Shown piece by piece: positions 15,488 to 16,075 of a stretch of 29,116 nucleotides of DNA. The position numbers and the translations under genes are program-made. Position 1 is the stretch's first letter, and every line of letters starts with the position of its first letter. Below the pieces are notes generated by a model, which was not told the DNA's origin, did not search any database, and worked only from the letters and a program-made list of their open reading frames with translations. Source of the DNA: Candidatus Pacearchaeota archaeon. Its GTDB lineage: Archaea; Nanobdellota; Nanobdellia; Pacearchaeales; GW2011-AR1. The stretch covers positions 1-29,116 of the forward strand of contig JAGLWP010000001.1 in NCBI GenBank assembly GCA_023133375.1, given 5' to 3'.

Positions 15488-16075
15488 ATGAAAAAAGATA
15501 CAAAAAAGAAACTTCATGCTTTAGACCCGAGATTTAGAAAAAGATTTACAGAATTAATGTCTATGATGGATGAATCTATTTCTCTTCTTTATGAAGCAGC
15601 AACACATGATGAAAAAACAGGACTGTATAATAATAAATTTTTTGAAAATATGCTCGAGATGGAAATGGAAAAAGCTAAGAGGGGAAAACAAAAACTTTCT
15701 CTTGTGATTATAGATATAGATTTTTTTAAAAAAATAAATGATACTTATGGACATATGAAGGCAGATGAATTACTTGCACAACTTGCAAAAGTTTTAATGG
15801 AGCAAGTAAGAAAATCAGATATTGCAGCAAGGTTTGGAGGAGAAGAATTTATTATTTTGCTCCCAGAAACAAACTTAGAAAAAGCAAAAAGATTCACAAC
15901 AAGATTGCGAAATGCTATTAAAGCAGATAACATGTTGAGCAAACATGGTGTTGAAGTGAGCGGGGGGATAACAGAATTTAAAAAAAGTGATACTGCAAAA
16001 AGATTAAAAGAAAGAGTTGATAAGGCACTTTATCAGGCAAAAAAACAAGGAAGGAACAGGTTTGAAACCAAGTAA
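15488..16075 (+). CDS. Diguanylate cyclase (GGDEF domain)
   Basis: D-x-x-TGLYN, DIDFFKKINDTYGH, RKSD I-site five residues before GGEEF, SGG, DKALYQAKKQGRN. Confidence 0.95.
   Translation: MKKDTKKKLHALDPRFRKRFTELMSMMDESISLLYEAATHDEKTGLYNNKFFENMLEMEMEKAKRGKQKLSLVIIDIDFFKKINDTYGHMKADELLAQLAKVLMEQVRKSDIAARFGGEEFIILLPETNLEKAKRFTTRLRNAIKADNMLSKHGVEVSGGITEFKKSDTAKRLKERVDKALYQAKKQGRNRFETK

Follow-up and report, generated by a model that had tools for sequence, protein, structure and literature searches.

A stand-alone stalk-GGDEF protein, probably a native diguanylate cyclase, with a conserved chromosomal position in an order of DPANN archaea

Does a DPANN archaeon with a very small genome encode a diguanylate cyclase of its own, and, if so, what could its product, cyclic di-GMP (c-di-GMP), act upon? 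The question is raised by an open reading frame (ORF) for 195 amino acids in a contig of a Candidatus Pacearchaeota archaeon (JAGLWP010000001.1, assembly GCA_023133375.1), which was analysed over all of its 29,116 nucleotides and is called the window below. Comparison of sequences, predicted structures and gene neighborhoods indicates that the gene probably encodes a diguanylate cyclase native to the archaeon, with a minimal architecture in which a helical stalk of about 37 residues leads straight into one GGDEF domain. It belongs to a clade of proteins of approximately 180-235 amino acids from a DPANN order (records labelled Pacearchaeota, Woesearchaeota and Nanoarchaeia), whose genes are ancestrally located just downstream of the gene for DTD2.

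The ORF begins with ATG, and its product matches the GGDEF family PF00990 over the whole model (positions 1-161 of 161; E-value 1.3e-44, 152.3 bits at a cut-off of 23.8) and TIGR00254 (E-value 9.9e-49, 165.3 bits at a cut-off of 37.4). No second Pfam domain exceeds its cut-off; a match to Cas10-Cmr2_palm2 inside the GGDEF region scores 18.4 bits at a cut-off of 27. The part upstream of the GGDEF domain is only 37 residues long, and a REC domain is absent from both the Pfam annotation and the AlphaFold2 model. The translation contains the motifs DIDFFKKIND, GHMKAD (residues 88-93), RKSD, GGEEF and KKQGRN (residues 185-190). The intact cyclase motifs, the RxxD site and the short N-terminal helix without a sensor domain, all noted in the preliminary description of this locus, are thus supported by the full-length Pfam match, direct reading of the motifs and the predicted structure.

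The conservation of these residues was assessed in an alignment of 53 family members at 40-87% identity, which also underlies the AlphaFold2 model. Residues D41, K43, T44, N48, D76, D78, F80, K81, N84, G88, H89, D93, R108, D111, R115, F116, G117, G118, E120, K185 and G188 are invariant, and E119, F121, R139 and R189 are conserved in at least 90% of the members. R139 aligns with an I-site arginine of PleD and corresponds to the secondary I-site arginine. In the alignment, D76, K81, N84, D93, K185 and R189 fall on the PleD residues that contact metal, phosphate and guanine and that we take to be D327, K332, N335, D344, K442 and R446. The roles of these residues, of the GGEEF loop and of the I-site are presumably those of their PleD counterparts.

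The nearest sequences with solved structures belong to active cyclases, namely DgcR from Leptospira (6zxm, E-value 5.5e-33), 3ign (3.7e-32) and PleD from Caulobacter (3.4e-31; structures 1w25, 2v0n and 2wb4). PleD and DgcR, which serve as references for feedback-inhibited diguanylate cyclases, are 36-40% identical to the archaeal protein over the GGDEF domain and share with it the identical DIDFFKKIND and GGEEF motifs, the spacing of RxxD, the secondary I-site arginine and the C-terminal lysine and arginine. In contrast to these bacterial enzymes, the archaeal protein has no REC domains and hence no phosphorylation control, which also separates it from the response-regulator cyclases of the PleD/WspR type; it is 195 residues long, compared to 454 in PleD and 293-318 in the DgcR constructs.

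The AlphaFold2 model (pLDDT 93.9) consists of helices 3-10 and 14-39 and a GGDEF fold, with no further domain. The stalk helix is amphipathic in the model, and hydrophobic residues recur along it every three to four positions (F16, F20, L23, M27, I31, L34, A38). Foldseek matched the model to about 50 solved cyclase chains with probability 1.00 and TM-scores of 0.72-0.87, as expected for the palm-like GGDEF fold. The best full-length matches are diguanylate cyclases with a stalk or a coiled coil, namely SiaD from Pseudomonas aeruginosa (7e6g), the portion of Caulobacter DgcB that comprises coiled coil and GGDEF domain (6ttr) and an engineered fusion of the GCN4 zipper to the WspR GGDEF domain (3i5c), with TMq scores of 0.85, 0.83 and 0.74, respectively. 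In all three, as in the archaeal protein, one helix leads into a GGDEF domain with an A-site and an I-site, but sequence identity is 27-35% and the archaeal stalk is shorter. The SiaD model NF038266 is the best NCBIfam match (E-value 1.4e-50), yet its 172 bits fall below the equivalog cut-off of 290.

Based on this homology, two chains would pair via the stalk, and each GGDEF domain would bind one GTP-Mg2+ through D76, E119/E120, N84, D93, K81, K185 and R189. The two GTP molecules would then be condensed to c-di-GMP. Binding of the product at the RxxD I-site (R108, D111, R139) would turn the enzyme off and cap the level of c-di-GMP. Without a sensor domain, the output may be governed by product feedback and by transcription, the latter from a promoter of the gene itself, for which the TATA-like box TTTATTAA is a possible candidate that would yield a leaderless or near-leaderless mRNA. 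Control by a stalk-binding protein, as SiaC acts on SiaD, is a possible alternative.

Table 1. Features of the cyclase gene and its surroundings (window coordinates; the stop codon is included in the gene coordinates).
Feature	Coordinates	Strand	Basis
Stand-alone stalk-GGDEF gene, predicted diguanylate cyclase	15488..16075	+	ORF, Pfam and NCBIfam matches; orthologues align from residue 1
N-terminal helical region, residues 3-39, predicted stalk, presumed dimerisation element	15494..15604	+	AlphaFold2, local pLDDT 80-90
GGDEF catalytic domain, residues 38-191	15599..16060	+	PF00990; the genome profile search gives the same span
DIDFFKKIND, residues 76-85: metal-binding D76, lysine K81, guanine-binding N84	15713..15742	+	Alignment with PleD, identical
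I-site RxxD, R108-K-S-D111, product-inhibition site by homology	15809..15820	+	Read directly; 5 residues upstream of GGEEF
A-site GGEEF, residues 117-121, preceded by R115-F116	15836..15850	+	Read directly
TATA-like box TTTATTAA, 21 nt before the ATG	15459..15466	+	Sequence; chance matches are frequent in AT-rich DNA
DTD2, archaeal-type D-aminoacyl-tRNA deacylase, ancestral upstream neighbor	11128..11973	+	PF04414, E-value 1.4e-60
Inserted accessory island between DTD2 with the DUF5684-like gene and the cyclase, this genome only	12437..15251		Synteny comparison
Protein-L-isoaspartate O-methyltransferase (PCMT), convergent downstream neighbor, context only	16079..16732	-	PF01135, E-value 6.6e-53

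Thousands of proteins in the database are related to the cyclase. The 120 best matches have lengths of 192-220 amino acids (nearly all 192-200) and identities of 68-89% to the cyclase; four of them carry an organism label, three being Pacearchaeota, Nanoarchaeota or Nanoarchaeia and one 'subsurface metagenome'. A tree was built of 174 GGDEF domains from the loci of relatives, from contigs of named genomes and from the nearest representatives of the exhaustive search. The cyclase falls into a clade with an SH-aLRT support of 96 and 32 rows, which unites 20 of the 21 sequences of DPANN kin with all 12 short representatives lacking an organism label and contains no multidomain bacterial protein. 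Inside this clade, separate sub-clades with support correspond to the family of the window and to the other families. Bacterial proteins come no closer than 48% identity over the domain, and the nearest of them are multidomain. Relative to the nearest orthologue in the protein search, L114 (89% identical), the ratio of nonsynonymous to synonymous substitution rates (dN/dS) is 0.04-0.11 at dS of 0.64-1.45. Trees of DTD2 and of the GGDEF protein are both star-like and recover only the pair of the query and L114, hence they are compatible but not diagnostic. These observations point to a native gene that was vertically inherited over a long time and repeatedly lost in the order. The clade could derive either from an ancient bacterial donor or from something older.

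One GGDEF gene of another family of the order, located in the syntenic region between the genes for RNase HII and dph5 (L023, G026:C2:122757-123332), has 35% identity and a long branch outside the short DPANN clade; it could be a replacement or a product of fast divergence. Two members of the clade come from metagenome-assembled genomes (MAGs) labelled Bacillota (L034, DATKUW010000087.1) and Paceibacterota (L041, JAQTRG010000035.1). The first shows DTD2, GGDEF, RNase HII and SMC genes in the same order as in the window, at 64-67% identity, whereas in the second the cyclase has a TFS gene of the TFIIS type as a neighbor. The two contigs are archaeal, and their public labels look wrong, with mis-binning as the probable cause. 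The second contig also encodes, 1.1 kb from the GGDEF gene, a stand-alone class III adenylate/guanylate cyclase of 211 amino acids (positions 2210-2845, minus strand; PF00211, E-value 1.4e-19), so that two nucleotide cyclases are close neighbors there. In a cold seep metagenome that is the likely source of the window (run X1), searched with window positions 15300-16200, several variants of the gene coexist at approximately 80-99% identity, hence related cyclase-carrying populations co-occur in that sample.

The GGDEF family PF00990 is present in 85 of the 201 sampled genomes of the order (33 of the 76 high-quality ones), in 45 of 100 genera, and in 90 of 301 sampled genomes of the class. Presence is largely all-or-none within a genus: some genera have the gene in every genome (5/5, 7/7 and 6/6), others in none (0/9 and 0/9). 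Most hits in the window's family lie in frames of approximately 190-235 codons; a minority form of about 270 amino acids has two N-terminal membrane helices. The latter is represented by L252-L255 from other genera (G018, G010, G163 and G135), where the proteins have about 265-271 amino acids, two predicted membrane helices before the domain and 36-41% identity to the cyclase of the window. Since this form differs from that of the window, the GGDEF count for the family mixes two architectures.

The chromosomal position of the gene is conserved as well. The order of genes for arginyl-tRNA synthetase, TrmB, an aminoacyl-tRNA synthetase (aaRS), dph5, an HD protein in some cases, DTD2, a variable segment, RNase HII, SMC and, further on, DnaG is common to congeners and to other genera. 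The window's own family shows further instances of the full run TrmB-aaRS-dph5-DTD2-GGDEF-RNase HII. Four other families of the order contributed seven loci to this comparison, and six of these have parts of the run (dph5, aaRS, DTD2 or RNase HII beside the gene). The GGDEF gene directly follows DTD2 on the same strand in L114, L014, L003, L034, L035, L037, L038 and L019, the last one from another family. The gap is 30 nt in L114, and in the other direct neighbors the matched stretches are from tens to about 190 bases apart. One small DUF5684-like ORF separates the two genes in L036, and a gap of about 770 nt in L039. In other families of the order the GGDEF gene still lies within 1-3 kb of dph5. 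The interval between the GGDEF gene and RNase HII has no ORF conserved among the GGDEF-bearing loci, which ruled out a linked downstream partner.

In the window itself, the contig is archaeal on both flanks of the cyclase and carries TrmB, DTD2, a diphthine-synthase-like methylase and a DnaG-type Toprim protein as archaeal markers, along with RNase HII and SMC. The assembly comprises 447 kb in 41 contigs and is 75% complete with 0.25% contamination; in agreement with the preliminary description, the host is a genuine DPANN archaeon, and the misassignment of the contig considered there is contradicted by the synteny across the order. A genome profile search identified the cyclase as the sole GGDEF gene of the assembly. 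Its G+C content of 0.31 and third-position G+C content of 0.209 equal those of the neighboring housekeeping genes.

The separation of the cyclase from DTD2 is specific to this genome. The distance from the DUF5684-like gene to the cyclase is 3.1 kb, and the interval contains an accessory island of about 2.8 kb with a G+C content of 0.277 compared to 0.30 in the window; one of its ORFs matches HEPN_IX. The corresponding segment is missing from the nearest relative, L114, and from L036. The ATG of the cyclase lies 237 nt beyond the right end of the island, confirming the earlier placement of the gene just outside it. The island is an insertion specific to this genome and not part of the cyclase, therefore the cyclase is the older of the two. 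The right end of the island (15160-15245) carries four spaced TTCGGA-type boxes, cttttcggatac, cttttcggacag, ctattcggttag and ttattcggactaag, approximately 250-330 nt upstream of the ATG.

The whole interval between DTD2 and RNase HII (11974-19557) is a variable hot spot, which measures 7.6 kb here versus 1.3-2.4 kb in four congeners. It holds the island, the cyclase, PCMT, a serine tRNA gene, three unknown ORFs, an Ltp-repeat lipoprotein and a methionine tRNA gene, and its content differs in every relative. PCMT is present at the same locus in the GGDEF-less congener G003. As called from the TTG at 16732, the PCMT ORF shares its first 17 codons with the gene for tRNA-Ser(GCT) (16681-16763, minus strand); translation probably begins instead at the ATG near 16675 (MKKEELIKS...). 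The window contains another PCMT paralogue at 24339-24941. The cyclase has no match among PADLOC defense systems, and a role in defense was set aside on this ground.

What remains of a c-di-GMP pathway was searched for in the genome and across the order. No EAL, HD-GYP or PilZ protein is encoded among the window ORFs of at least 90 amino acids, as the preliminary description had stated. An HD protein at 10188-10841 was rejected as a phosphodiesterase, being a generic HD domain without a GYP motif that also occurs in GGDEF-less congeners. EAL and PilZ domains score above the cut-off in none of the 201 genomes of the order. HD-GYP is found in 26 of them, mostly in the sister families f4 (12/24) and f9 (4/5), compared to 8 of 155 in the window's family. 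In f4, 11 of the 13 GGDEF-bearing genomes also have HD-GYP, counted over kin that are not independent, and the HD-GYP proteins show the canonical HHExxDGxGYP motif. The f4 genomes carry up to four GGDEF genes each (three or four in the examples G027, G034, G060 and G068; loci L118 and L119). By its gene content, f4 holds a fuller module for c-di-GMP turnover.

A partner of the cyclase was sought in a small gene-content screen, in which the window's genome and two other GGDEF-bearing genomes (G143, G120) were set against G006, G061 and a portion of one more genome, all of them GGDEF-less. Of 384 ORFs shared by the window's genome with both other GGDEF-bearing genomes, five had no match in the GGDEF-less ones: the cyclase, a PP2C-like lipoprotein, a PAP2 phosphatase, a VanZ-like protein and a Q/P-rich membrane protein. 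The PP2C-like lipoprotein (13 of 201 genomes) and the VanZ-like protein (49 of 201) have no link to GGDEF. The PAP2 phosphatase (59 of 201) is about four-fold enriched in GGDEF-bearing genomes; this was judged to be a lineage effect, since it is also found in the GGDEF-less genome G003 (81% identity) and is absent from all six genomes of a GGDEF-bearing genus. The reverse screen, started from G120, revealed a half-size transporter of the major facilitator superfamily (MFS), approximately 200-220 amino acids long, whose gene in one genus follows that of the cyclase at a distance of 0.5-2 kb (G120:C3:454117-454764, G201:C4:28664-29257, G164:C4:128009-128620); several copies have internal stops. 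Its presence in 43 of 201 genomes is driven by two genera, it was not seen in the window's genome and it does not co-vary with GGDEF within genera, so that it was rejected as a general partner. No co-inherited partner emerged from this small screen, in which three of the four candidates were tested across the order. The intracellular target of c-di-GMP, if any, is probably a protein that the GGDEF-less relatives also keep.

Archaeal GGDEF genes were still doubted by Galperin et al. (2018). Braun et al. (2021, PMC8646023) listed more than 300 archaeal GGDEF hits, many of them in DPANN and Asgard archaea, and reported that c-di-GMP was not found in Haloferax or Sulfolobus. Sidorov et al. (2026, Mol Microbiol, PMC13725321) verified archaeal contigs and cloned short GGDEF-only proteins from DPANN MAGs, some of which gave catalysis-dependent signals with a Vc2 riboswitch reporter. 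By their description those proteins, e.g. KHO53289.1 and KHO53915.1, resemble the present one: their DPANN origin was checked via flanking genes, a short N-terminal extension precedes the GGDEF domain, the GG(D/E)EF motif and signature residues are intact with no Hypr serine, and the models superpose on 3IGN and PleD. Their study left distribution, synteny, phosphodiesterases, receptors and origin unsurveyed; what is added here for the clade is its occurrence in 85 of 201 genomes, its linkage to DTD2, the lack of EAL and PilZ in the sampled order and the restriction of HD-GYP mainly to sister families. The novelty assumed in the preliminary description has therefore lapsed as regards the genes, which had been reported and in part assayed (PMC8646023, PMC13725321); as regards the messenger it still holds, insofar as PMC13725321 describes c-di-GMP as never detected in an archaeon.

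That the messenger has gone undetected is one of several points that weigh against a working cyclase in this lineage. In the assays of Sidorov et al. (PMC13725321), no MAG-derived short protein was consistent across all three, and some effects were independent of catalysis. In the 75%-complete genome of the window, the search for EAL, HD-GYP, PilZ and MshEN that the preliminary description had proposed found none of them (EAL, PF00563, and HD-GYP, PF13487, without a match at E-values up to 0.1), nor a c-di-GMP-I or -II riboswitch. Of a complete c-di-GMP module with cyclase, phosphodiesterase and receptor, neither a phosphodiesterase nor a known receptor was found in this genome. The same holds for the SiaC activator (PF09345, no match at E-values up to 0.1), by which the system differs from that of SiaD. 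The family has alanine in GHMKAD, or GHxKAD, where most cyclases carry the second glycine of GHxxGD. A two-copy homodimer prediction with the family alignment scored 0.01, which speaks neither for nor against dimerisation. None of the RNA sequencing runs contained the cyclase gene; metatranscriptome matches span only 45-50 nt at DIDFFKKIND, a region conserved universally, and come from other organisms. Finally, GGDEF is absent from four searched genomes of the same genus and one other of the same family, all 80-88% complete and with the locus kept, which is a matter of loss or of failure to assemble. Since these relatives keep the locus without it, the cyclase is dispensable.

The protein could act mainly without catalysis, as a sensor of GTP or c-di-GMP or as a scaffold, for example by reading the c-di-GMP of neighbors or of a host via its I-site, while cyclase activity is weak or irrelevant. 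The invariant I-site and the failure to find a degrading enzyme, a receptor or a co-inherited partner would fit such a role, as would the catalysis-independent phenotypes of several archaeal GGDEF proteins (Sidorov et al. 2026, PMC13725321). But it is the catalytic residues, and not the I-site alone, that are conserved in a clade diverged to 40% identity, and a cytoplasmic protein would require import of c-di-GMP. Receptor-type GGDEF domains usually lose their catalytic residues. We consider a non-catalytic role unlikely.

Alternatively, c-di-GMP might be made for use outside the cell, being released or passed to a host or neighbor, in which case the archaeon would need neither receptor nor phosphodiesterase. 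A tiny genome of a host-dependent type (447 kb at 75% completeness), the lack of EAL and PilZ and the scarcity of HD-GYP (8/155) in the window's family, and the half-size MFS transporter beside the cyclase in one genus are all in line with this idea. The transporter link is confined to that genus, unseen in the window's genome and without co-variation within genera; an export signal is lacking, as is any evidence concerning a host, and the invariant feedback I-site fits tight intracellular control better than bulk production. Export of the messenger is, on balance, improbable. The control of attachment or influence on a partner cell suggested in the preliminary description was speculation, for which nothing in the present data speaks.

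The product might also be 3'3'-cGAMP (cyclic GMP-AMP), c-di-AMP or linear pppGpG instead of c-di-GMP, given that some GGDEF enzymes of the Hypr class make cGAMP, that the alanine in GHxKAD is unusual and that no c-di-GMP-specific partner was found. The position governing selectivity for GTP over ATP is an invariant aspartate (D93) and not the Hypr serine, so that cGAMP-making Hypr activity is unlikely; N84 is invariant too, and none of the 20 archaeal proteins of Sidorov et al. (PMC13725321) has the Hypr serine. A different product has only a slim chance.

That the gene entered the bin with bacterial contamination, or was recently acquired by horizontal transfer and drifts under relaxed selection, is hardly credible. 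In favor of this reading, GGDEF domains are found overwhelmingly in bacteria, MAGs labelled Bacillota and Paceibacterota contain two close homologues, and the gene occupies a variable region next to an inserted island and is missing from congeners, but the contig is archaeal on both sides, the 'bacterial' contigs are mislabelled (archaeal synteny or TFS), the composition equals that of the neighbors, and the isolated recent transfer considered in the preliminary description is contradicted by dN/dS of 0.04-0.11, a DPANN-only clade with family-level structure and a position conserved across the order.

If the protein is the native cyclase that we favor, the next question is how its c-di-GMP is read. 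We know of no archaeal c-di-GMP receptor or dedicated phosphodiesterase. Tentatively, and with less confidence than for the cyclase itself, we propose that the c-di-GMP of the short DPANN cyclases acts via a type of effector not yet described, in a minimal archaeon-specific circuit of genomes of about 0.5 Mb. The known receptor and phosphodiesterase families were missing from the family of the window, apart from HD-GYP at the rarity given above, and no accessory gene was seen to vary together with the cyclase; the target of such a circuit would therefore be a core archaeal protein, for instance a pilus ATPase of the FlaI/PilB type, of which this genome encodes two, or a transcription or translation factor.

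Whether archaea use c-di-GMP is a question that this cyclase gene leaves unchanged, since genes of its kind were already described in 2026 and are widespread. The analysis of the clade adds that the short cyclase is an old, selected and vertically inherited trait of a DPANN order, carried by about four in ten genomes, with a fixed chromosomal address beside DTD2 and no recognisable partner. Its practical value lies in the size of these genomes: with approximately 500-600 genes, it is realistic to screen an entire proteome for proteins that bind c-di-GMP.

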